DNA of 62,414 bases, filler included. It is 5 parts of 5 records of this genome, joined end to end, with 100 filler letters (N's around TTAATTAATTAA, not from the genome) between each part and the next. Parts side by side here need not be neighbours in the genome. Positions count along the whole stretch, not along the records: positions 1 to 25,198 come from DRR723986_7745; 4 more parts are not named here. One strand, written 5' to 3'. Position 1 is the stretch's first letter. Every line of letters starts with the position of its first letter. The translations under genes were made by a program, and so were the position numbers. Positions 1-56,836 of the stretch are shown one piece after another. The notes below the pieces were generated by a model that was given only the letters and a program-made list of their open reading frames with translations, was not told the origin of the DNA and did not search any database.

Positions 1-357
1 TGCGCCGCCGCTACCACCGCCCATGCCGGGAATAGGCAGAGCGTCCAGACCGGGCAGGCTTGGCGTGCCGCCACCGCCGAGGCCGGCGAGGGCGTCAAAT
101 AAGGGTGACAGGGCGTCTAAGCCCGGGGCACCACCGAGAGCATCGAGCCCGGGGAGGCCGCCGTCGGGTAAGCCGTCAAGCCCTGGCAGTCCGCCGCCAC
201 CCAGTGAATCCAGGGGCAGGGCGCTAAGGCCGGGAATACTGCCCAGCAGGCCAGTCAATGCGTCCAGTGGCAGAGGAGCGGTTTGCGCGTGTCCCGCGCT
301 AGAGGCCGCGAGCGCAACGCTCAGGGCCAACGTGTTTTTAATCTTTTTAAATGGCAT
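1..357 (-). CDS. Secreted Gly/Leu/Pro-rich protein with (L)PGLD(A/G)L repeats, 3'-truncated at the window edge (not in ORF track)
   Basis: Manual translation of the minus strand from ATG at 357: MPFKKIKNTLALSVALAASSAGHA-QTAPLPLDALTGLLGSIPGLSALPLDSLGGGGLPGLDGLPDGGLPGLDALGGAPGLDAL... Open for 119 codons, with a signal-peptide-like N-terminus and an AAGGGAG SD upstream. Confidence 0.85.
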   Translation of the reverse strand, partial: MPFKKIKNTLALSVALAASSAGHAQTAPLPLDALTGLLGSIPGLSALPLDSLGGGGLPGLDGLPDGGLPGLDALGGAPGLDALSPLFDALAGLGGGGTPSLPGLDALPIPGMGGGSGGA

Positions 358-647
358 GAGAAGTCTCCCTTCATCCTTAATTATTACTTTGAGCGGAGCG
401 AGATCACGACACCGCCTGTCTGCGAGATACCGCTAGGTGTCGCTCTAGAAATATCACGGACAGCGCCTGTTGCGTCTTAGTTGTGATTTGAACAGGGGGT
501 AGTACGAATGTACCTAGGTATTTACCCCTATATTGGTCGGGGTGCTGAGTGGGTCACATCTTTAGCAAGCGATGGCGTTCTTGATCGAGCGCATGTTTTG
601 CTGGTGAGGGGCTGTGTTTGAATGGTTGCTTGGAAAGGAGAACCCCT

Positions 648-1085
648 ATGCAAGCACTTCCCCATTTGTACACGGTCAGTGGTCGCGCCGAGTCGGCTTC
701 CGACGTTAGCTTGAGCGCGGCAGGGCTGGAAACCATGCTATCGGCACCGCCCGCTGAATTTGGTGGCCCGGGTGACAAGTGGTCGCCGGAAACGCTGTTA
801 CTGGCATCGATGGCCGATTGCTTTATTTTAACCTTCAAGGCGGTGGCCCGGGCCTCTCATCTTGAATGGTTGAGTCTGTCCTGCGAGGTGGATGGCACTT
901 TGGAGAAAAGCGACGGTGCTGTCCGGTTTACGCGTTTCCTTACCCGCGCTCGCCTGGAAATACCGGAGGGCATCAGTGTGGAGGTGGCTGAGCGCCTGCT
1001 GCACAAATCTGAGAAAGCCTGCCTAATCGCGAACTCTGTCAGCGGTGAGAAGGTGTTAGAGGCGGCTGTCAGCGTGGCGACATAG
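648..1085 (+). CDS. OsmC/Ohr family protein
   Basis: PPAEFGGPGDKWSPETLLLASMADCF and KACLIANS two-cysteine motifs; AGGAG SD before ATG 648. Confidence 0.88.
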   Translation: MQALPHLYTVSGRAESASDVSLSAAGLETMLSAPPAEFGGPGDKWSPETLLLASMADCFILTFKAVARASHLEWLSLSCEVDGTLEKSDGAVRFTRFLTRARLEIPEGISVEVAERLLHKSEKACLIANSVSGEKVLEAAVSVAT

Positions 1086-1175
1086 CCTCTGCGATGGCGG
1101 TGTTGTGCACCTCAGCGGGACGTTGGCAGGCTGAGCGGTTATGCTTGGGCGCTAATCACGTTGATGAGACTGCCA

Positions 1176-1670
1176 ATGAAAACACCTGCTATATTGTTGT
1201 GCGCATGCCTGTTCGCGATGCCGGGTTATGCGCAATCTGCTGATGAGAAACACGTACTGGTTGATAGCTTGCTTGAGCTGACGGGCCAGTCAGTGCCAAC
1301 CATCGCCAGCCAATTTTCCCGCCTGTTTAACGACAGCCTGACCCGTCAGTTGCGGGCCAGTTACCCGAATTTACCCGCAGCGGCGAACAGTGTGGTTAAA
1401 GAAGAGGTTGATGCGGTGATATACAGCCAGCTCATTGCCAGCGATGCCTATGCCAATGCGATGCGCGAGATTTACACGGAGGCATTGACCGGGCCTCAGC
1501 TCCGTGAGCTATTGACGTTTTATCGTAGTGACCTGGGAAAAACGCTGCTGCGCGTCACGCCGGCAATCAATGCGCGCAGCAGTCAACTGGGGCGAGAGTA
1601 TGGTGAACGCCTGTCTGCGGAGATTCGTCGTCGCGTTAGTCAGCGACTAGAGAAGGAGAAGCTCCTCTGA
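1176..1670 (+). CDS. Exported DUF2059-like protein
   Basis: Signal peptide; ELLTFYRSDLGK motif. Confidence 0.7.
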   Translation: MKTPAILLCACLFAMPGYAQSADEKHVLVDSLLELTGQSVPTIASQFSRLFNDSLTRQLRASYPNLPAAANSVVKEEVDAVIYSQLIASDAYANAMREIYTEALTGPQLRELLTFYRSDLGKTLLRVTPAINARSSQLGREYGERLSAEIRRRVSQRLEKEKLL

Positions 1671-2108
1671 CGATTCGCGCTAGGGGTTAATGCGAATACA
1701 ACGGTTATTAATTTGCCCGCAACCTTAAAGGCCCGTTGTAAGTGGTAAAAGTGGCATGCGACGGACGTCCTTTAATGGTGATGTTGGCATGGAACGGTCG
1801 CATGAATTCCTGAAAATGACCCTCGATACGATGAGCGAGCATATCGCCGTCATCGACGAGACCGGTTTGATCCTCTACGTAAACAGCCGTTGGCGGCAGT
1901 TTGCTGAGCAAAACGCTTGCACACCCCACTGCGAGTGGAAGGGGCAAAACTACTTGTCGGTGTGCGACCGCTCGGCGGCATCGGGAGACGAATTAGCGGG
2001 GCGCGCGGCGGCAGGTATTCGCGATTTGATTGGCAGTCAGCGTAACCATTTTTATCAATATTGCGCGGAAAACCCGTTAGCTTTAGCTGACGGGATGTAG
2101 AGCGCAGC

Positions 2109-2136
2109 TTGCTTGAATGTTGGCACTGTATATAAT
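2109..2136 (+). promoter_or_regulatory. Putative sigma70 promoter for tnpB (leaderless transcript)
   Basis: TTGCTT (2109-2114), 16-nt spacer, TATAAT (2131-2136), then 6 nt to ATG 2143; no SD. Confidence 0.55.
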
Positions 2137-2142
2137 GCCAGT

Positions 2143-3204
2143 ATGGCTACCAGAACACTAAAAGTCCGTGTTAAAGATCGTCACGCCAATGTGTTGCGTG
2201 AGATGTCACGTTCAGTGAATTTTGTCTGGAACTACATCAATGAACTTAGCCATCGCTCGATCAAAGAGCGGGGCCAATTTCTTTCAGCCTACGACCTGCA
2301 CCCCTATACCAAAGGCGCGGGCAAAGAACTGAGGCTTCACAGTCAAACCTTACAGTGCATCGCCGGGGAATATGTTACCCGGCGTAAGCAGTTTAAGAAG
2401 TCGCGCCTGAATTGGCGCAAGTCAGGTGGCGCTCGACGGTCGCTGGGCTGGATACCGATTAATACGGGGCAGGCCCAGTGGAAGAATGGTCAGGTGTTAC
2501 ACAACGGACACTATTTCAAGGTCTGGGATAGCTATGGTCTTAGCCAATATCAATTCCGTACTGCCAGTTTTAATGAAGATGCCCGAGGTCGCTGGTACTT
2601 CAATGTGGCGGTCGATGTCGATGTCGAGGTGGAACAGGCTAAAGGTAAATCAGCCGTTGGTATTGATTTGGGCTGTAAAGACACGGCGACGGATAGTAAC
2701 GGCGATCAGGTTAAAGGGCGAGAGTATCGCGCTCTGGAGGAGAAGCTGGGTATTGCCCAGCGAGCCAGAAACAAAAAACGCGTGAAGGCGATCCACGCTA
2801 AGATAAAGAATCGCAGGGCGGATGCCCTGCACAAATACAGCCGCAAACTCGTAAATGAGAATGCGGCAATCTTCGTTGGTAACGTATCAAGCCTCAAGCT
2901 GGTAAAGACCAAAATGGCGAAATCCGTTTTGGATGCCGGTTGGGGTCAGCTCAAAACCATGTTGGAATACAAGTGCGAAAACGCAGGCGTGGTCTTTGAG
3001 GAAGTCAACGAAGCCTACTCCACCCAGACGTGCTCGTGCTGCGGGGTCAACCCGGATAGCAGTCCGAAAGGTAGGGCCGATCTTGGAATAAGAGAATGGG
3101 TCTGTTCAGAGTGCGGAGCTGAGCATCAGCGCGATATCAATAGCGCTAGAAACATTCTTGCGCTGGGACACCAGCGTCTTGCGGAAGGAAAGGTAGCGGC
3201 GTAA
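2143..3204 (+). CDS. tnpB: RNA-guided endonuclease TnpB (353 aa), RuvC-II-rearranged type
   Basis: N-terminal VNFVWNY helix, GRWYFNV, RuvC-I VGIDLG, DAGWGQLKTMLEYK, VNEAYSTQTCSCCG/CSECG zinc ribbon, RuvC-III RDINSARNI. Confidence 0.95.
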   Translation: MATRTLKVRVKDRHANVLREMSRSVNFVWNYINELSHRSIKERGQFLSAYDLHPYTKGAGKELRLHSQTLQCIAGEYVTRRKQFKKSRLNWRKSGGARRSLGWIPINTGQAQWKNGQVLHNGHYFKVWDSYGLSQYQFRTASFNEDARGRWYFNVAVDVDVEVEQAKGKSAVGIDLGCKDTATDSNGDQVKGREYRALEEKLGIAQRARNKKRVKAIHAKIKNRRADALHKYSRKLVNENAAIFVGNVSSLKLVKTKMAKSVLDAGWGQLKTMLEYKCENAGVVFEEVNEAYSTQTCSCCGVNPDSSPKGRADLGIREWVCSECGAEHQRDINSARNILALGHQRLAEGKVAA

Positions 3205-3290
3205 GCCGCCCTGGGACAAAGGCGGTAATAGCTTTTGGAATCTCGGAGAGCTTTAGCTCCCGAGAGGATGTCAACTGGAGTACCCCTGCG
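3130..3290 (+). ncRNA. Predicted omegaRNA (reRNA) scaffold plus a guide taken from flanking host DNA; 5' boundary approximate
   Basis: Established TnpB biology: the scaffold overlaps the tnpB 3' end and right end, and the guide is the ~16 nt beyond the end (CTGGAGTACCCCTGCG). Hairpins visible at 3196-3209 and 3241-3265. Confidence 0.6.
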
Positions 3291-4028
3291 ACAGTCCCGA
3301 GCAGTCGCGCTGGTTCATGATGCGCGTCACGCGTTTTTCTCTCTGTGACGTCAGTTACTTTGTCATTTCCCATCAAGATATTACCGAGAGGAAGCAGGCT
3401 GAAGAGCTGGTAAGTAAGCTCGCCCGCTCGGATGGTTTAACTGGCGTGGCGAATCGACGGTGTTTTGACGAGTTTTTGCGCAATGAGTGGCGGCGCTGCG
3501 CCCGCCTTGGGCTGCCTGTTAGCCTGGCAATTATTGATATCGACTATTTCAAACTGGTCAACGACACCTACGGTCACCAGTCCGGGGATGACTGCCTGAG
3601 GCAGGTAGGGCAGTTGTTGAGCCAGTTTGCAAAGCGCCCCACAGACATCTGCGCCCGCTACGGTGGTGAGGAGTTTGCGCTGGTGATGGGCAATACCTCC
3701 ATTGAGCAAGCGCGGGCACTCCTTGAGCCGTTGAATGCCGCGATCAAGCAACTTGCCCTGCCAAACCGAGCGTCGCCAATAGCGTCGGTGCTCACCGCCA
3801 GTGTGGGCTTGGCCTGCTTGGCTCCCAGGCCTGATAGTAGCGAGGATGCGCTACTGGCCTTGGCCGATGCGCAACTCTATGCCGCGAAGGCTGCCGGACG
3901 TAACCAGCTTGCGGCGGCGAGTTGAGGTATGCCTAGTGATGCCTTACAGATCTAAGTATTACCCCAGATGGCTGTCTCTACTATAACAGCTACCCTATGG
4001 TGCAAATTTTTCTATAAGGATTGTTGTT

Positions 4029-4544
4029 ATGAAGGGATTCGCTCCTTTTGTTTGTTTGGGTATTTTGTCGTCTCCAGTGTTGGCGAATGAGCAAGATCCT
4101 GTCGTCTATGTTGGTGCAATCTACTCTCACATACTCTACGAGGCTGGTGATTTTGACGGTGATCTAGCTGCCTACGGTGCATTGTTGGGTTTCCCTGTAA
4201 ACGAGCACTTCGCGATTGAGCTACGGTATTTGGTCGGTGAAGAGGGGGAAACCACGGACGTAGGAAGTAGCATAGACGTGAATCATATGTTGGGTGCCTA
4301 CCTTCGCGCTGGTATGCCACTTTCGGATCGCCTCTATCCTTATGCGTTGCTCGGTAGAAGTAAGTTTGAACTGAATGGCGGCGCCCCAGGTGATGGCGGT
4401 AAGAGTGGGTTGAGTTACGGCTTGGGTATGCAGGTTTCTTTTACTGAGTCGCCAGCGCTCATCAATATCGAGTATGCGAGTTTGCTAGACAGGGACGACT
4501 ACGAGTTGGCTGGTCTCACAGTAAGTCTGCAGGTGCAGTACTAG
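4029..4544 (+). CDS. Small outer-membrane beta-barrel protein (OmpA transmembrane-like)
   Basis: Signal peptide, NEHFAIELRY, YPYALLG, GLSYGLG, terminal aromatic residue. Confidence 0.8.
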   Translation: MKGFAPFVCLGILSSPVLANEQDPVVYVGAIYSHILYEAGDFDGDLAAYGALLGFPVNEHFAIELRYLVGEEGETTDVGSSIDVNHMLGAYLRAGMPLSDRLYPYALLGRSKFELNGGAPGDGGKSGLSYGLGMQVSFTESPALINIEYASLLDRDDYELAGLTVSLQVQY

Positions 4545-4565
4545 CTATCATAGGGCGGCGGACGC

Positions 4566-5465
4566 TCACAGTGTTGCCGCCAATGCGATGAGCTGTTCGC
4601 GTAGCCAGCGATGCCCCGCGTCGGCGTTGGCGCTGCGGTGCCAGTAGAGCGTCATATCGAGTGTGGGGGTAAGCACAGGCAAGGGTTGCAGCGCCAAGCC
4701 GAGCAAGTCGGCGTAGCGCTCACCCAGTTGCTGGGGAAGAGTGAGCAGCAGCGATGATGCAGCCACGACGTGGCAGGCTGCATGGTAGCTCTGACCGCGT
4801 ACCTGCACCTGACGTTTGAAGCCCTGCTGCTGTAACTGTATGTCCTCAAACAGTGCTCCCTCCCGCCGCCCGGAAACACCGATATGCCGCGCCTGCAGGT
4901 AGCCTTCCATGGTGAGAGCTTGCGCGGCCAGTGGATGGTCGGCACGCATTAGTACGCAGAGTGGCTCGCTGCGCAAGGGGCGCTGCTCAATACTGCTGTC
5001 GACAGTCTGGGGAACATCCACCGCTAATGACAACTCCCCAAGGGCGAGGTGGCGGCTGAGTTGATCCCGACGCAGCCGCCGGCTGTGTATAGAAAGCCAG
5101 GGTGCACTTGCTGAAAGTTGCTTGATCAGTGGCGGCAGCAGCAGGAATTCCATGGTGTCGCCCAGACCTAATACAAAGCGCCGCTGTGAGGCGCTTGGCT
5201 CAAAATGCTGCCCGCGGTGCACGCTGTCTTGCAACAAACTCAGCGCGGATTGGATGTCGTCGGCGATGGTGTCAGCGACCGGCGTTGGCGCGATGCTACG
5301 ACCACGCCTGATGAACAGGGGGTCGTCAAAATGTTCGCGCAGGCGCGACAGGGCGTTGCTCACCGCCGGTTGGCTTAGGTGGAGGTCGCGGGCGGCTTCC
5401 GTTAGCGAGCCAGCGCGGTAGATCGCGTCAAAAACGCGAAAGAGATTCAGGTCCATGGCGGTCAC
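4566..5465 (-). CDS. LysR family transcriptional regulator
   Basis: DLNLFRVFDAIY...SLTEAARDLHLSQPAVSNALSRLR HTH plus substrate-binding domain. Confidence 0.95.
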   Translation of the reverse strand: MTAMDLNLFRVFDAIYRAGSLTEAARDLHLSQPAVSNALSRLREHFDDPLFIRRGRSIAPTPVADTIADDIQSALSLLQDSVHRGQHFEPSASQRRFVLGLGDTMEFLLLPPLIKQLSASAPWLSIHSRRLRRDQLSRHLALGELSLAVDVPQTVDSSIEQRPLRSEPLCVLMRADHPLAAQALTMEGYLQARHIGVSGRREGALFEDIQLQQQGFKRQVQVRGQSYHAACHVVAASSLLLTLPQQLGERYADLLGLALQPLPVLTPTLDMTLYWHRSANADAGHRWLREQLIALAATL

Positions 5466-5472
5466 TCAATTC

Positions 5473-5487
5473 ATTCATAATTAGAAT
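5473..5487. promoter_or_regulatory. LysR-type T-N11-A box
   Basis: Palindrome ATTC-N7-GAAT in the divergent lysR/acyl-CoA dehydrogenase intergenic region. Confidence 0.6.
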
Positions 5488-5567
5488 AATAACTGATTTA
5501 TAAAATAAATTAGACTGATGTTTTGAGTCGCCGTAATCTGATCGGCTAAACCCGTAAGGAGCCGATC

Positions 5568-6794
5568 ATGGATTTCAGTCTCAGCCCTCGTGCCCAGGAC
5601 TTGCGCGACCAAGTTCGTCATTTCATTGATAACCATATTATGCCCGTTGAAGAGGCCGTACTGCCGGAGTTGCTGCTTAGCAAACACGGCGGTGACTGGG
5701 GGCAGTGGTCGGTGTTGCCGCAGGTGGAAGCACTGAAGGAGAAAGCCCGCGAACTCGGGTTGTGGAATTTGTTTTTGCCCGATGCCGAATTCGGCGCCGG
5801 CCTGTCAGTAAGCGAATATGCGGTGCTTGCCGAGCAAATGGGGCGTTCGCATTTTGCGCCTGAAGTCTTTAACTGCAATGCGCCCGACACCGGCAATATG
5901 GAGGTGTTGTGGAAGTATGGCAGCGAGGCGCAAAAAGCCCGCTGGCTCACCCCGTTGCTGAATGCTGAAATTCGATCGGTGTTCTTTATGACCGAACCGG
6001 ATGTTGCTTCTTCCGATGCCACCAATATGGAAGCCACCATAGCGGTAGACGGCGACGAGCTGGTGCTCAACGGTAAAAAATGGTGGTCGACAGGGGTGGG
6101 TGATCCGCGCTGTGAAGTCGGCGTATTTATGGGGCTGAGCAACCCCGATGCCGCGCGCCACAGTCGCCATTCCATGGTGTTGGTACCGATGAATACGCCA
6201 GGCGTGACCATCAAACGCATGCTGCCGGTGTTTGGCGGTTTTGATGAGCCTATCGGTCATGGCGAGGTGTGGTTTGACAATGTGCGCGTGCCTAAAGACA
6301 ACTTGATTTTGGGTTTGGGGCGCGGTTTTGAAATTGCTCAGGGCCGACTGGGGCCGGGACGTATTCACCACTGTATGCGCGCCATTGGCGCCGCTGAACG
6401 CGCATTGGAGTTAATGATTAAGCGCGGTCAGTCGCGGCAGGCCTTTGGCAAGCCGCTGATTAAGTTGGGCGCCAACCCCGAGCGTGTTGCCGACCTGAGA
6501 ATTGCCATCGACCAAGCCCGATTGCTCACGCAATATGCCGCGTGGAAGATCGACCAGGTCGGCGCCATGGCGGCGCTCAGCGAAATTTCTGCGATCAAGG
6601 TGGTCGCGCCCAATGTGCTGCAAAATGTCGTGGATGAAGCCATTCAATTATATGGCGGAGCGGGTCTAAGCAATGACACGCCGCTGGCATCCATGTTTGC
6701 AATGGCAAGGGTATTGCGCATCGCCGACGGCCCAGATGCGGTGCACCGCAATTTGATTGCCCGACTAGAATTTGCCAAATACAACACACCCTAA
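5568..6794 (+). CDS. Acyl-CoA dehydrogenase (ACAD10/11-like group)
   Basis: FNCNAPDTGNMEVL, MTEPDVASSDATN, QGRLGPGRIHHCMR, LRIADGPD. Confidence 0.95.
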   Translation: MDFSLSPRAQDLRDQVRHFIDNHIMPVEEAVLPELLLSKHGGDWGQWSVLPQVEALKEKARELGLWNLFLPDAEFGAGLSVSEYAVLAEQMGRSHFAPEVFNCNAPDTGNMEVLWKYGSEAQKARWLTPLLNAEIRSVFFMTEPDVASSDATNMEATIAVDGDELVLNGKKWWSTGVGDPRCEVGVFMGLSNPDAARHSRHSMVLVPMNTPGVTIKRMLPVFGGFDEPIGHGEVWFDNVRVPKDNLILGLGRGFEIAQGRLGPGRIHHCMRAIGAAERALELMIKRGQSRQAFGKPLIKLGANPERVADLRIAIDQARLLTQYAAWKIDQVGAMAALSEISAIKVVAPNVLQNVVDEAIQLYGGAGLSNDTPLASMFAMARVLRIADGPDAVHRNLIARLEFAKYNTP

Positions 6795-6814
6795 GGCGAG
6801 GCACAGAGATCACT

Positions 6815-7636
6815 ATGGCAAGTATGACAACGCAGGCTCCGCGCGTATTTATTACCGGCGGCGCATCGGGATTGGGGCGCGCCTTGGCCGAGCGCTATGC
6901 GCAGGCGGGTTACTGGGTGTGCATCGGCGATATCCATAAGGAGCGCGGTGAAGAAACCCTGCAAGCGCTTCAGGCGGTTACCACCGCGCAATATTTGCAC
7001 TGCGATGTGCAGCGCGAAGACGATCTGCAGTCTGCCGCTGATTGGCTGCGCCAGCACTGGTCCGGTGTGGATGTGGTGATCAACAATGCTGGGGTTGCCA
7101 CGGCCGGTGCGATAGATGAGCAGAGCATGGAAGACTGGCAGTGGGTAATGGACATCAATGTGTTGGGTGTGGTGCGCGGTTGCAAGGTGTTCACGCCGCT
7201 GTTGCGCCAGCAGGGCGGTGGCCACCTGGTGAATGTGGCGTCGCTGGCAGGGGTGATTCATCCACCGAAAATGGCGTCCTACTGTGCAACCAAAGCGGCG
7301 GTGGTGGCGTTATCGGAAACGCTGACCCTGGAGCTGGATAGCGACAATATTGCCGTTTCGGTTGTGTGCCCGGCGTTCTTTCGAACCAACCTGGCAGAAT
7401 CGCTGCGCGCCTCAGACCCGACGTCGACGGTATTAACTCAGAAGTTGGTTAACAAGGCGAAAGTAAGCGCTGACGAGATTGCCGAGAAGGTATTTCGAGG
7501 GGTGGAGGAGAAGCAGTTTAAAATTCTTACCCACGACGACAGCAAGCGTTTGGTGATGCTAAAACGCCTGCTGCCCTATCGCTGGTTTCGCAAAATTATG
7601 CTGAAAAATACTGCGGGCATGATGCGTAAGCGCTGA
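6815..7636 (+). CDS. SDR family oxidoreductase
   Basis: TGGASGLG, NNAG, YCATK. Confidence 0.93.
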   Translation: MASMTTQAPRVFITGGASGLGRALAERYAQAGYWVCIGDIHKERGEETLQALQAVTTAQYLHCDVQREDDLQSAADWLRQHWSGVDVVINNAGVATAGAIDEQSMEDWQWVMDINVLGVVRGCKVFTPLLRQQGGGHLVNVASLAGVIHPPKMASYCATKAAVVALSETLTLELDSDNIAVSVVCPAFFRTNLAESLRASDPTSTVLTQKLVNKAKVSADEIAEKVFRGVEEKQFKILTHDDSKRLVMLKRLLPYRWFRKIMLKNTAGMMRKR

Positions 7637-8059
7637 TTAGATCAGTGCCAACAGTGCATTCACTGCCATGCCGAGCACGGCCAGGCTGCTTAGCGAAAAA
7701 ATACTGAATCGCAGCATCACCACGTTGCTGGTGCTTTGCACGATGCTGTGGGCAACACGGCATGCCACATAAAACCAGGCGAGCGCCAGGTTAATGCCAT
7801 CGCCCTGGCCAAGCATAGCCAGCACGATTGCCGTGGCATAAAAGATGGTCGGTTGCTCCATTAGGTGGTTGTAGTTGTCCGCCTTCCATTGAATGCGCTT
7901 GTCCATCATGGTTGCCAGCTCGGCGGTGCGCTCGCCAGTGCTGGGCGGCATGCGCGCTTTTCGCATTGCCGGGAGTCGCGCCATGGCCATCCAGCTGAGC
8001 ATAACCATGCTCCACAGCACCAGGATGATCACCGGCAGTAAAATGGGAGAGGCGTCCAT
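7637..8059 (-). CDS. MAPEG family membrane protein
   Basis: ADNYNHLMEQPTIFY, CRVAHS; four hydrophobic helices; AAGGA SD. Confidence 0.85.
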   Translation of the reverse strand: MDASPILLPVIILVLWSMVMLSWMAMARLPAMRKARMPPSTGERTAELATMMDKRIQWKADNYNHLMEQPTIFYATAIVLAMLGQGDGINLALAWFYVACRVAHSIVQSTSNVVMLRFSIFSLSSLAVLGMAVNALLALI

Positions 8060-25198: not shown

Positions 25199-25298
25199 NN
25201 NNNNNNNNNNNNNNNNNNNNNNNNNNNNNNNNNNNNNNNNNNTTAATTAATTAANNNNNNNNNNNNNNNNNNNNNNNNNNNNNNNNNNNNNNNNNNNN
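25199..25298. other. Artificial contig linker
   Basis: N44-TTAATTAATTAA-N44 (stop codons in all six frames). Confidence 0.98.
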
Positions 25299-32685: not shown

Positions 32686-32785
32686 NNNNNNNNNNNNNNN
32701 NNNNNNNNNNNNNNNNNNNNNNNNNNNNNTTAATTAATTAANNNNNNNNNNNNNNNNNNNNNNNNNNNNNNNNNNNNNNNNNNNN
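32686..32785. other. Artificial contig linker
   Basis: N44-TTAATTAATTAA-N44. Confidence 0.98.
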
Positions 32786-43296: not shown

Positions 43297-44196
43297 ATGC
43301 TAGTGAATGCCGCAAACCTCGACAGCCTGCGCGTGGGCTACAAGACCTCGTTCCAAAACGGTTTGGGACAGGTCGAACCGATGCGCGACCGGATCGCCAC
43401 AACAATCCCGGCGACCCAGAAAGAACAAAAATACGGCTGGCTGGGCAAAGTGCCCAACATGCGCAAGTGGATCGGTCCGCGCGCAATCCAGAATATGACA
43501 CAGCACGACTATTCGATCAAAGAAGAGCCTTGGGAGCTGACGATCGGTGTCGACCGCGACGACATCGAAACCGACAATCTCGGTATGTACGGGCCTATGT
43601 TCAATGAAATGGGCATGTCGACCGGCTCGAACAAAGAGCTGCTGGTCTGGAACCTGATCGAACAGGGCTGGACCACGCCGTGTTACGACAAACAGAACTT
43701 TTTCGACACCGACCACCCGGTTCTGGACAAAGACGGCAATATGATCACCGTCGCCAATACCGATGGGGGTGCAGGCGCGCCCTGGTTCCTGATCGATGAC
43801 AGCCGCGCAATCAAGCCTGTCCTCTTGCAGTTGCGCAAGGACGACGAGTTTGTTGCCATGGATGATCTGACCTCCTCGAACGTCTTTAAGAACAAAGAAT
43901 TCGTTTACGGGGTCGATGCGCGTTACAACGCCGGGTTCGGGTTCTGGCAGTTTGCCTGGGGTTCCAAGCAGCCCCTCAATGCGGCGAATTATGCCAACGC
44001 CCGCTCCAGCCTGAGCGGCATGAAAGGCGATCATGGCCGACCGCTTGGCATCCGTCCCAAATTGCTGGTGGTGCCGCCCTCGCTGGAAAGCGCAGGCCGC
44101 AAGATCCTCAATTCTGACAACGCCGCCGGTGGCGAAACCAACGAGTGGAAGGGCACCGCCGAGTTGATGGTCTGCCCTTGGCTCCAAGCCGCTTAA
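43297..44196 (+). CDS. Mu gpT-like major capsid protein
   Basis: YGWLG..P.MRKWIG, DDIETDNLGMY, CYDKQNFFDTDHP, YGVDARYNAGFGFWQ, LVVPPSLE. Confidence 0.95.
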   Translation: MLVNAANLDSLRVGYKTSFQNGLGQVEPMRDRIATTIPATQKEQKYGWLGKVPNMRKWIGPRAIQNMTQHDYSIKEEPWELTIGVDRDDIETDNLGMYGPMFNEMGMSTGSNKELLVWNLIEQGWTTPCYDKQNFFDTDHPVLDKDGNMITVANTDGGAGAPWFLIDDSRAIKPVLLQLRKDDEFVAMDDLTSSNVFKNKEFVYGVDARYNAGFGFWQFAWGSKQPLNAANYANARSSLSGMKGDHGRPLGIRPKLLVVPPSLESAGRKILNSDNAAGGETNEWKGTAELMVCPWLQAA

Positions 44197-44208
44197 GGGG
44201 AAATTGAA

Positions 44209-44484
44209 ATGAGCGAACGCGAAACTCTCAAAGCCCGCGCGATTGAGCTGGGCCTCGACCTGCCCGGCAACATCCCGAACGACAAGCTGAAAGCTGCGGT
44301 GGTAGATGCCGAAGCCGCGCTGACGTCTGGATCGGTGGTGGTTGTTGTCGGCCCCAGCGAAGGGCGCTGGCGGCTCGGGCGTCACTTCACTTCCGAGCCG
44401 GTTGAAATCCCGGCCAGTGAATTGAGCAAAGACGACATGTTGGCCCTCAAAGGTGACGCACGTCTGATCGTCAGCACCCGCTGA
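44209..44484 (+). CDS. Mu gp35/HI1506-like protein
   Basis: GRWRLGRHFT.EP, LKGDARLIV; follows the capsid gene. Confidence 0.7.
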   Translation: MSERETLKARAIELGLDLPGNIPNDKLKAAVVDAEAALTSGSVVVVVGPSEGRWRLGRHFTSEPVEIPASELSKDDMLALKGDARLIVSTR

Positions 44485-44494
44485 TCAGATCCCA

Positions 44495-44526
44495 AAACGG
44501 GGGCGGTTTTAAATTCGCCCCCGTTT
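44495..44526 (+). terminator. Hairpin, likely terminator/attenuator after the capsid cluster
   Basis: AAACGGGGGCG-loop-CGCCCCCGTTT; short U tract. Confidence 0.6.
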
Positions 44527-44554
44527 CAAACCCCCTTCAAATCCGGTTTAAACC

Positions 44555-44983
44555 ATGTCTTATGCCAGCCTTGATGATCTGACAGACGCCTTTGGCGGAC
44601 GTGAATTGATCGCCCTGACGGATCGCGGCGAAGTGGCCACGGGCGCAATTGATATGAGCGTCATCAACGACGCGCTGGCTTCAGCGGATGCGCTGATCGA
44701 TGGCTATGTGAACCGGCGCTACACCCTGCCAATGTCCCCCGTGCCGCCCCTGATCCCGGATCTGGCCGTGGCAATCGCGCTCTACAAGCTGCACCGTTTT
44801 GGCCGCCCCGAGGAGATCAAAGACGACTACAAGTCCGCTTTGGTGTCGTTGCGAGATATTGCAGAGGGCAAAATCAAGCTGCCCGTAGAAGGCAAAGAAC
44901 CCGCTCAAACCAACGCCAACAGCGTGCAGATCACCGACCGCGAACGCCCGCTAGAAGCCAGTAAAATGACGGGGTGGATCTGA
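44555..44983 (+). CDS. Mu gp36-like (DUF1320) head-tail adaptor
   Basis: MSYASLDDL, ELIALTDR, ALIDGYV..RYTLP, IALYKL. Confidence 0.9.
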   Translation: MSYASLDDLTDAFGGRELIALTDRGEVATGAIDMSVINDALASADALIDGYVNRRYTLPMSPVPPLIPDLAVAIALYKLHRFGRPEEIKDDYKSALVSLRDIAEGKIKLPVEGKEPAQTNANSVQITDRERPLEASKMTGWI

Positions 44984-49803: not shown

Positions 49804-49903
49804 NNNNNNNNNNNNNNNNNNNNNNNNNNNNNNNNNNNNNNNNNNNNTTAATTAATTAANNNNNNNNNNNNNNNNNNNNNNNNNNNNNNNNNNNNNNNNN
49901 NNN
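49804..49903. other. Artificial contig linker
   Basis: N44-TTAATTAATTAA-N44. Confidence 0.98.
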
Positions 49904-56377: not shown

Positions 56378-56477
56378 NNNNNNNNNNNNNNNNNNNNNNN
56401 NNNNNNNNNNNNNNNNNNNNNTTAATTAATTAANNNNNNNNNNNNNNNNNNNNNNNNNNNNNNNNNNNNNNNNNNNN
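56378..56477. other. Artificial contig linker
   Basis: N44-TTAATTAATTAA-N44. Confidence 0.98.
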
Positions 56478-56836
56478 GATGGGGAGTGGTTCTAGCCCAA
56501 AGACTTCTGACTCCGCCGCACTGCATCCACTTGCAATGCTGACAGTTTCCCAATCGAAGACAAACAGGAAGGTATTTGAAAAACAAAAGACCCAAAACCT
56601 GCTCACAGCCCCAAAACACAAGTACTTAAGACAGACGACTCAAAAGCCGCGAGGGGCAATGAGCGGCGCGACCAAGACCAGATCGATTAGGACCAAAACA
56701 ACGGGTAGGAACAAATGCTACGAATGCAAAAACGCGATGCACGGATCACTCCATACATCGCGTTTGTATTCTACATCCGCACAGACCGCAAACTCAAATC
56801 CAGAGACGGAAACGAGGGCCGCGGCCGGCAGAAATT

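Follow-up and report, generated by a model that had tools for sequence, protein, structure and literature searches.

A tnpB element inside a PAS-GGDEF gene

At positions 2056–3274 of the window (the whole 62,414-nucleotide stretch of DNA analysed), a 1219-bp element separates codons 89 and 90 in a gene for a 305-amino-acid PAS-GGDEF protein. The genome is that of a marine gammaproteobacterium resembling Spongiibacter marinus. The features of the locus are the following:

1789..2055, + strand: 5' part of the cyclase gene, codons 1–89 (ORF list; the intact Neomelitea salexigens orthologue shares 81 of 89 residues)
2051..2055, + strand: TTTAT, the target of insertion and presumed transposon-adjacent motif (TAM), abutting the left end on its 5' side (empty sites and siblings)
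2056..3274, + strand: non-autonomous IS200/IS605-family element, tnpB only (exact gap against L001, L108 and L109)
2056..2142, + strand: 87-nt left end that holds an imperfect hairpin at 2073–2094 (CCCGTTAGC-TTTA-GCTGACGGG) (DNA fold; left ends of tnpA-less siblings align)
2143..3204, + strand: tnpB, 353 aa (Pfam and NCBIfam matches; alignment to ISDra2 TnpB chains; family alignment)
2611..2628, + strand: hexanucleotide repeat (GTCGAT)2-GTCGAG in tnpB, encoding (VD)n (copy number varies among strains)
3040..3274, + strand: putative omega-RNA scaffold, 5' limit approximate, overlapping the tnpB 3' end and the right end (RNAalifold consensus fold)
3241..3274, + strand: right end, with a hairpin at 3241–3265, then GGATGTCAA; TCAA at 3271–3274 closes the element (DNA fold)
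3275..3290, + strand: presumed omega-RNA guide, 16 nt (could be ~20 nt), at the start of the 3' gene half (placed after the published TnpB mechanism)
3275..3925, + strand: 3' part of the cyclase gene, codons 90–305 and stop, with the end of the PAS domain, then GGDEF with RPTD and GGEEF (Pfam; N. salexigens 95% identical)

In three uninterrupted alleles (L001, L108 and L109) the site reads TTTAT followed directly by CTGGAGTACCCCTGCG, with TTTAT running straight into CTGG and no target-site duplication. In L001, which is N. salexigens DSM 19753, the counterparts of window positions 1–2056 and 3275–8000 adjoin at one base, the junction reading ...CATTTTTAT and then CTGGAGTACCCCTGCGACA, and the cyclase gene is a 305-aa open frame containing NHFY-LEYPC. 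The other two are long metagenome contigs, ~98% identical to the window, with the same empty junction. An earlier note on this DNA had described an IS200/IS605-type tnpB element 3' of TTTAT and ending in TCAA, seated exactly between a TAT and a CTG codon, whose removal would restore a 305-aa PAS-GGDEF frame, and had named orthologues reading FY-LEYPC across the junction as a check. The empty alleles and the family ends agree with this placement, the computed join of 1789–2055 with 3275–3925 is an open frame, and the orthologues read FY-LEYPC as predicted.

The boundary of the element is uncertain by 1 nt, because a C stands at both 2056 and 3275. The ends were set by family comparison, in which copy pairs within one genome fix the element ends: the left end begins directly after TTTAT, and the right end is ...GTCAA (3270–3274), immediately after which sibling similarity ceases. 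TTTAT also adjoins the left end in L094, L095 and L101–L104, and TTTAT or TTAT does so in siblings generally. The left-end hairpin folds as DNA at -12.1 kcal/mol (z -3.05), while the right-end hairpin covaries across 23 sequences and is found together with GGA(N)GTCAA in 23 of 25 sibling loci, the remaining two being cut by the locus end. The element thus has subterminal imperfect hairpins at both ends and no terminal inverted repeats, a specific target 5' of the element without duplication, and a conserved right-end cleavage motif, as is typical of the IS200/IS605 family. The IS608/IS605 group, with its Helicobacter pylori models, has subterminal imperfect hairpins without inverted repeats, a T-rich target that is not duplicated, and a TCAA right end. 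The hairpins, the short T-rich target and the TCAA end recur here, and close siblings carry a Y1 TnpA together with tnpB; unlike that group, the present copy has no tnpA, its target is TTTAT rather than TTAC, and the tnpA of its siblings is divergent from tnpB. The G+C content of the element is 51%, against 57% for the window. Scans of 1650–4050 gave no sigma-70 promoter sites (1.5 +/- 1.2 in shuffles) and five terminator-like sites (2.5 +/- 1.3 in shuffles); we draw no claim from either.

The window is a draft in which contigs are concatenated with N/TTAATTAATTAA spacers, which raises the question of whether a chimeric misjoin in assembly had placed the element in the cyclase gene. The locus, however, is well within the first 25-kb piece, its junctions match the TTTAT/TCAA rule of the family to the base, and independent contigs from other samples span both junctions (1795 nt in run X7 and 3296 nt in run X14). 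These contigs refute an artefact, to which we give practically no credence.

The joined 305-aa frame has GGEEF at residues 219–223 and RPTD at 210–213, five residues upstream, so that domain, GG(D/E)EF motif and RxxD inhibitory site together predict a GGDEF diguanylate cyclase. The C half alone matches the Pfam GGDEF model (PF00990) with 159 bits, while the N half alone matches PAS_8 weakly, with 17.8 bits, below the 21.8 cut-off; an intact orthologue (P0121) scores 159.7 bits on TIGR00254. Read as it is in the window, the 5' frame continues for 15 codons of element sequence to a stop at 2098–2100. Split in two by the insertion, the gene has most likely lost its activity. The earlier proposal that the element could lock c-di-GMP signalling off was overstated: relatives have 13 and 14 GGDEF matches, and signalling is therefore not "locked off" by the loss of one such gene.

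TnpB and its putative guide RNA

The 353-aa TnpB scores well above the cut-offs of PF07282 (88.7 bits; cut-off 26.3), PF01385 (49.1 bits; cut-off 30.5) and the NCBIfam guided_TnpB model NF040570 (239.7 bits; cut-off 100). It carries the RuvC-I Asp in GIDLG, the RuvC-III Asp in RDIN and a zinc finger (CSCC...CSEC), and its RuvC/zinc-finger part aligns to the ISDra2 TnpB structures 8EXA/8H1J with an E value of 7.8e-21. In the alignment to the ISDra2 chains, the position of the canonical RuvC-II Glu (E278 in ISDra2) is occupied by Gly246. An alternative Glu, Glu290 in VNEAY, follows 44 residues later and is kept in 23 of 23 family sequences. Nuclease-dead TnpB-like repressors (TldR) have lost RuvC residues or have a truncated C-terminus, and they sit in a fixed, non-mobile context. 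Such an identity was considered and rejected: this TnpB keeps its catalytic Asp residues as well as the alternative Glu and the zinc finger, and the element around it, with a transposon end on either side, is polymorphic.

In rearranged RuvC-II TnpB clades, as the accounts in PMC10691335 and PMC10530073 give it, an alternative conserved Glu lies "approximately 45" residues downstream. By its residues, the TnpB of the element would be of this known "rearranged RuvC-II" type, resembling "TnpB2" (PMC10530073) and RIIr clades such as RIIr-5 (PMC10691335), in which, as described there, Gly likewise replaces Glu in RuvC-II and an alternative Glu follows downstream. TvTnpB, a rearranged-RuvC TnpB, is described as cleaving DNA (PMC10530073), and the protein encoded here presumably cuts DNA as well. 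TvTnpB differs in being archaeal and in using NTGAC (PMC10530073), whereas the element here adjoins TTTAT, although its siblings L093 and L100 adjoin TGAC.

The hexanucleotide repeat within tnpB varies by +6 and -6 nt in runs X1, X2 and X7, and members of the TnpB cluster (96–100% identical) have 351, 353 or 355 aa, with 10 of 11 at full length. The C-terminus ...EGKVAA and the stretch of ~53 nt that separates the tnpB stop from the right-end hairpin were considered as possible lesions and rejected, as both recur in relatives (P0002, P0004, P0008, P0014 and P0020 and loci L110 and L111 have the odd C-terminus and/or the ~53-nt stretch).

The 3' end of tnpB and the right end together appear to encode a conserved structured RNA. 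In the RNAalifold consensus of 23 sequences, 13 of 35 pairs keep their pairing through changes on both sides, including a covarying stem at 3160–3177, and a subfamily-specific extra module of ~53 nt (about 3190–3240) is shared with L110 and L111. It would be transcribed as an omega-RNA. An Rfam scan of 1500–4300 (E up to 1) returned no omega-RNA family; a mir-194 match in it (E 0.76) was taken as chance. A contig from an RNA library (X14), which covers the whole locus at depth 185, was also set aside, since such a contig does not establish expression.

According to Meers et al. 2023 (PMC10055086), as far as its account is used here, the guide comes from the right-end flank, the TAM equals the transposase target, and the donor joint is the natural target. 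On that model, the omega-RNA of this element would carry the 16–20 nt 3' of the right end as its guide, which together with TTTAT would spell the uninterrupted allele by construction. The 21-mer of TAM and guide was found in 3 of the 109 loci compared, namely the three empty alleles, and the earlier prediction that TTTAT plus CTGGAGTACCCCTGCG is the repaired cyclase allele thus holds exactly in each of them. TnpB would then cut the excised donor joint, and recombinational repair would lead to retention of the transposon. This would hold for every such copy: a guide matching the repaired allele is a built-in property of IS605/TnpB elements as that account presents them, and not specific to this locus (PMC10055086). 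The "self-guarding" relation is accordingly generic, and the locus points to no new mechanism. Guide, TAM and donor-joint logic are assumed here by likeness to ISDra2 and Geobacillus IS605 TnpB, as outlined in the same source (PMC10055086), from which the element differs in the missing canonical RuvC-II Glu, the ~53-nt extra RNA module and the lack of a transposase that would make the donor joint.

Transposase, copy number and excision

The element contains no tnpA, and its 87-nt left end is too short for such an ORF. Of the 18 sibling loci examined, 8 have a tnpA upstream of tnpB in divergent orientation, and 3 of 3 sibling TnpAs tested score 146–152 bits on the IS200/IS605 transposase model. 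This copy was accordingly filed as a non-autonomous, tnpB-only derivative. A tblastn search of the 62-kb window with six sibling TnpAs gave chance matches alone (E 0.4 or more), and those near 44.4 kb (E 0.4–1.8) were rejected as tnpA, the ORFs there being phage-like by eye. S. marinus DSM 17750, the type strain of the same species, and N. salexigens each have a REP-associated transposase as their sole Y1 match, and neither genome contains the element's DNA or its TnpB. Because close siblings are full tnpA+tnpB elements of the IS605 type, delivery would have required a Y1 TnpA supplied from elsewhere, leaving an element that now has no transposase of its own.

In X7 and X14, contigs cross both ends of the element and continue into the cyclase flanks, which suggests a single-copy element, although a tnpA or further copies may lie beyond the window in this strain. 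In X1, a 1308-nt contig spans 2003–3304 and shares its endpoints with an 83-nt empty-site record; the two are therefore one branch each of a filled/empty bubble. A 1323-nt Logan contig with an identical TnpB was considered as a collapsed multi-copy repeat and, on the ground of this bubble, rejected as such.

The earlier note had further proposed a phase-variation switch with TnpA acting in trans. On this reading, precise excision by that TnpA would give back the cyclase, the TnpB-omega-RNA complex would cut the restored allele and bias cells towards the interrupted state, and c-di-GMP output would toggle within a clone. A precedent for precise excision with phase variation is documented for IS492 at the eps locus of Pseudoalteromonas atlantica, which encodes its own transposase. 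Both cases concern an insertion sequence in a surface- or biofilm-linked gene of a marine gammaproteobacterium, whose precise removal would restore the gene; the difference is that the present element has no transposase, and its excision is hypothetical. Scarless excision would indeed give back the 305-aa frame, the gene halves are without decay, as those of a periodically restored gene would be, and true IS200/IS605 transposases occur in 5 of 40 genomes of the same family. Nevertheless, neither the element, the window, the conspecific type strain nor N. salexigens has a tnpA, and the contigs through both ends are as expected for a single copy. Empty and filled forms are listed together in the seawater metagenome runs X1 and X2, but in metagenomes a mixture of strains suffices to explain this, the short sides of the empty-site joints (30 and 23 letters) fall under our 31-letter bar for bridging a junction, and X7 has the filled form only. 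The joints could reflect excision instead of strain mixture. TnpB would moreover oppose restoration in the published model, at least as set out in PMC10055086, leaving no stable ON state. We regard the switch as unsupported and highly improbable.

Insertion polymorphism, spread and loss of the cyclase

The insertion is a segregating polymorphism. It was found in 4 of 4 sequencing runs compared (X1, X2, X7 and X14), of which two also list an empty-site joint beside the filled form; these runs were chosen because the filled sequence was present, and the frequencies are biased accordingly. Since the X1 and X2 joints are under the 31-letter bar, the case for empty conspecific alleles rests on L108 and L109, and the two runs give a hint of co-occurrence. 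The locus is very probably an ordinary insertion polymorphism, in which a single-copy, non-autonomous IS200/IS605 element (tnpB and omega-RNA) has entered the PAS domain of one PAS-GGDEF gene. It offers a clean, base-exact tnpB-only insertion in a gene with natural filled and empty alleles and, with TAM (TTTAT), guide and target all known, a convenient natural test bed for rearranged-RuvC TnpB, whose bacterial members are little studied.

Neither gene half has stops or frameshifts, as the earlier note had stated. The window allele differs from an intact allele by nine synonymous codons and one non-synonymous codon. Its conclusion that the insertion is recent stands in part: the halves are clean, but several samples share the insertion on backgrounds that have diverged. 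At least two backgrounds carry it, as the X14 flanks share variants with L108 (codons 42, 130, 131 and 169) and the window resembles L109. Such a distribution would also arise by homing without transposition, in which TnpB and its omega-RNA cut intact alleles, homologous repair copies the element in, and the interrupted allele spreads across strain backgrounds. In a recombining population, the cut alleles would be either those entering an element-bearing cell or a cell's own allele after uptake of element DNA. All three empty alleles match TTTAT and guide perfectly, empty sites occur on both L108-like and L109-like backgrounds, and TnpB is full length in 10 of 11 variants. However, ordinary homologous recombination gives the same mosaic (X14 mixes L108-like and L109-like variants), both of the exact matches in the JGI metagenome collection are empty, and cutting is a prediction. 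Homing therefore appears improbable to us.

In the type strain DSM 17750, the same gene has deletions of 237 and 199 nt. The first lies between 8-nt repeats and takes out TAM and target; the second removes GGEEF and shifts the frame. We consider it similarly improbable, though conceivable, that the tnpA-less element persists as an RNA-guided homing allele in a recombining S. marinus population and that the 237-nt deletion is a scar of microhomology repair, an 'escape' allele. Either transposase-less homing or selected loss of the cyclase would, if true, in a wild population, give the locus greater weight than the insertion polymorphism that we favour.

Under selected loss, S. marinus would benefit from inactivation of the cyclase (or pay nothing for it), and the insertion would be one of several independent routes. 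This is possible, but we lean against it: only five alleles have been seen as sequence, intact alleles persist (L109 and L001), and relaxed constraint on one of 13–14 GGDEF genes would give the same picture without any advantage. One species nonetheless shows three different lesions, namely the insertion, the DSM 17750 deletions and a +1 frameshift at about codon 73 of L108. The frameshift falls within a G+C run in a metagenome assembly, where it may be spurious. Synonymous and non-synonymous codon differences between alleles, counted on the sequences themselves, stand at 9:1, 17:2 and 16:1, and since they are mostly synonymous, the cyclase gene would have been constrained until recently.

Insertion site and uninterrupted alleles

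The element, 1219 bp long with a G+C content of 51% (57% in the window), directly follows TTTAT (2051–2055), beginning CAATATTGCG..., and ends at 3274 with ...GGATGTCAA, after which the sequence continues as CTGGAGTACCCCTGCG; its boundary is uncertain by one base, C standing at both 2056 and 3275. When 1789–2055 and 3275–3925 were spliced by script, an open frame of 305 aa resulted, with GGEEF at residues 219–223 and RPTD (210–213) five residues upstream of it. Taken alone, the 3' gene part matched the Pfam GGDEF family (159 bits), the 5' part matched PAS_8 below threshold (17.8 vs 21.8 bits), and the middle ORF matched both TnpB families. The element comprises:

Left end, 87 nt: hairpin at 2073–2094 (DNA fold, z −3.05)
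2143–3204: tnpB, the middle ORF
3241–3265: right-end hairpin (DNA fold), then GGATGTCAA

Species-representative genomes scanned with the 3' gene half yielded matches in Neomelitea salexigens DSM 19753 (L001, 95% identical in aa) and, at 98% in its best segment, in Spongiibacter marinus DSM 17750 (L013). In L001, the counterparts of window 1–2056 and 3275–8000 adjoin at a single base (92–93% nt identity), the empty junction being CATTTTTAT joined to CTGGAGTACCCCTGCGACA. There the cyclase frame is unbroken over 305 aa and reads NHFY-LEYPC across the site; 81 of 89 residues of its 5' half are identical to the window. Two JGI metagenome contigs found with the exact left-flank 23-mer, L108 (51 kb) and L109 (77 kb), are each ~98% identical to the window and lack the element at this site. 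The insertion is therefore real, uninterrupted alleles being found in relatives; the empty contigs and the relatives' identities point to an S. marinus-like strain as the source of the window, and to an uninterrupted allele in that species. The spliced frame and empty alleles bear out the earlier note's proposal that the element splits the cyclase exactly and that removal restores a 305-aa GGEEF/RxxD protein, and N. salexigens shows the FY-LEYPC reading it expected of orthologues. Pro211 of RPTD (window 3638) is Ser in L001, L108, L109 and all four sequencing runs compared below.

Since the orthologue's PAS signal extends to about residue 133, the insertion splits the PAS domain, and the interrupted cyclase is, judged from sequence, most likely inactive. 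The S. marinus DSM 17750 gene carries lesions of its own: 237 nt are missing across the insertion site, between CCGCTCGG repeats, and a further 199 nt are missing with loss of GGEEF and a frame shift, the frame stopping after 80 aa. L108 is frameshifted near codon 73 by one additional G within a G+C run, which may be an assembly error. The suggestion that the element locks c-di-GMP signalling off did not hold: GGDEF matches number 13 (remnant included) in G001, the S. marinus type strain, and 14 in G002, N. salexigens, so loss of one cyclase does not shut the signalling down.

A tnpB-only element with a rearranged nuclease

TnpB relatives, sought in 301 genomes of the same order (E up to 1e-60), occurred in 15 genomes at 25 places. 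The right end was readable at 23 of these, the other two being truncated by the locus end, and all 23 showed GGAATC, a hairpin and GGA(N)GTCAA, with similarity ending directly afterwards. When the last ~200 nt of the 23 sequences were folded to a consensus, 35 pairs formed, of which 13 stay paired despite changes on both sides, the window stem 3160–3177 among them. This folded region is the expected, putative omega-RNA scaffold; no Rfam family matched it. In the window copy the stretch from the tnpB stop to the right-end hairpin is longer by ~53 nt, and the TnpB ends ...EGKVAA rather than ...VGIPVL. Damage was ruled out as the cause: both features recur in relatives, including L110 and L111, and are therefore a subfamily trait. 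L110 (genome G309, same family as the window host), a copy of this subfamily with 87% identity across 622 nt, retains its right end; it is 5'-truncated and contains a stop, and so represents a decayed relic in a further genome of the Spongiibacteraceae.

In an alignment to ISDra2 TnpB chains, Gly246 occupies the position of the catalytic RuvC-II Glu (...GTEHL vs ...VGNVS), and VG(N/D)V is the rule there across the family alignment. An alternative Glu (VNEAY) lies 44 residues downstream in 23/23 family sequences, all of which also keep Asp in RuvC-I (GIDLG) and in RuvC-III (RDIN) and the cysteines of the zinc finger. By these motifs the window TnpB has the published 'rearranged' catalytic site. 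The pattern of Gly for Glu plus a downstream Glu resembles RIIr-type TnpBs: PMC10691335 describes RIIr-5 as the largest rearranged group, in which Glu is replaced by Gly and an alternative Glu compensates, and PMC10530073 places the alternative Glu 'approximately 45 residues away'. The latter paper also reports that one rearranged enzyme, the archaeal TvTnpB, cuts DNA with the TAM NTGAC.

The ends proposed earlier (TTTAT on the left, TCAA on the right) find support at sibling loci. Same-genome pairs set the ends to the base: L083/L098 (...TTAT, then C...GTCAA), L102/L104 and L103/L095 (TTTAT at the left end), and L093/L100 (TGAC, the core of the TvTnpB motif). TTTAT adjoins the left end in L094 and L101 as well; other left-end neighbours are TTTAC (L091) and GTTAC (L089). 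L093 and L100 (both in genome G254) are full tnpA+tnpB copies, 99% identical to each other.

A divergent 133–156-aa ORF lies upstream of tnpB at 8 of 18 sibling loci examined (a fragment at a ninth), and all three tested scored 146–152 bits on the IS200/IS605 transposase model (cut-off 55). The family therefore includes autonomous IS605-type members, of which the window copy is a derivative with tnpB alone: a new copy of a known kind, tnpB-only IS200/IS605 with a rearranged-RuvC TnpB, and perhaps a new ISfinder-level member. Relatives with 70–76% aa identity are carried by plasmids of Shewanella, Azotobacter and Pseudomonas, which are plausible vehicles.

Proposed self-guarding, switching and homing

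According to Meers et al. 2023 (PMC10055086), excision by TnpA leaves the flanks rejoined as a donor joint; TnpB-omega-RNA, relying on the TAM that also serves the transposase, cuts this joint, which favours transposon retention. By analogy, the predicted TnpB target here would be TTTAT + CTGGAGTACC..., the intact cyclase allele. The 21-mer of TTTAT plus guide was present in 3 of 109 compared loci, exactly the empty L001, L108 and L109. The proposed identity of target and repaired allele thus stands as a sequence match, though as a generic property and not a locus-specific one, since it is true by construction for every such element copy.

The element contains no tnpA, and tblastn of the 62-kb window with six sibling TnpAs gave chance matches only; those within ORFs at 43297–44983, which by eye resemble phage head-region genes, were set aside. 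G001 and G002 yielded no match to the element's DNA and no relative of its TnpB. One Y1_Tnp match in each (34–39 bits) was rejected as an IS200/IS605 tnpA, being REP-associated (134 bits, cut-off 80, vs 28 on the IS200 model). This REP-associated tyrosine transposase gene (NF047646, 134 bits) is single-copy, at 1363–1821 of L082 in S. marinus DSM 17750 and in L081 in N. salexigens. Among 40 same-family genomes, five had a true IS200/IS605 transposase and one had two TnpB relatives, neither of them complete and one interrupted by a stop. With no transposase for this copy found in the element, the 62-kb window, G001 or G002, the reversible phase-variation switch put forward earlier lacks its key part. 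Without a transposase no donor joint would form, and the guard would be idle unless intact alleles entered by gene transfer; TnpB acting on alleles brought in that way, as in homing, is a possible reading.

Population variation and neighbouring features

Part of the 2137-nt stretch is present in 19 of 23 listed public runs, and 13 DNA or unclassified runs contain 70–84% of its words. Four runs (X1, X2, X7, X14) were compared as Logan contigs; all four have the filled form, a frequency biased by their having been picked for filled sequence. Contigs span 1615–3414 in X7 (1795 nt), 2003–3304 in X1 (1308 nt) and 1500–3923 in X14 (an RNA library; 3296 nt), and where one contig crosses both element ends, this speaks for a single copy in the sample. 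The X14 element has a ~110-nt replaced patch and a 9-nt insertion. A joint of 2055 to 3275, skipping 1219 nt, is listed in X1 and X2 at depths of 5.4 vs 9.6 and 27.7 vs ~5 (empty vs filled), with short sides of 30 and 23 letters, below the bridging threshold, and at contig level excision and strain mixture are indistinguishable for these joints.

Relative to the window's spliced frame, synonymous plus non-synonymous codon differences number 9+1 in L109, 17+2 in L108 and 45+18 in L001; being mostly synonymous, they indicate purifying selection on the cyclase gene. The interrupted allele shows no decay. At codons 42, 130, 131 and 169 the X14 flanks carry variants of L108, and at codon 25 one of L109. 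The insertion thus occurs on backgrounds that are mosaic, in a population that recombines; on these sequences it is not limited to one very recent clone. A recent insertion, as the earlier note held, accords with the undecayed gene halves but less well with these backgrounds.

Eleven near-identical TnpB variants (96–100%) occur in public assemblies, ten full length and one a fragment (914-nt contig). They mostly differ in VD repeat number (one to three copies): (GTCGAT)n at 2611–2628, in a variable linker ahead of the RuvC-I motif, gains or loses 6 nt between samples, giving TnpBs of 351, 353 and 355 aa. Leu119 (window 2499) is Phe in X1, X7 and X14, both residues occurring among the near-identical proteins. 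In X14 and the cluster member P0122, stretch 2607–2721 is swapped for a diverged patch resembling P0002, a relative of 85% identity, which suggests recombination between related elements.

Spacers at 25199–25298, 32686–32785, 49804–49903 and 56378–56478 (N runs around TTAATTAATTAA, a six-frame stop spacer) mark the window as at least five joined draft contigs, so synteny across them is not real. An ORF at 1–357 (minus strand) encodes a repetitive Gly/Leu/Pro/Asp-rich protein. The window's first 127 nt match at least seven tandem ~126-nt units in N. salexigens (L001 3062–3945), so repeat number differs between species. The region 3' of the cyclase stop (3928–4565) is variable and contains a 171-aa signal-peptide ORF (4029–4544); L109 has a different ~710-nt segment in its place, and the X1 and X14 contigs diverge immediately past 3923–3927.
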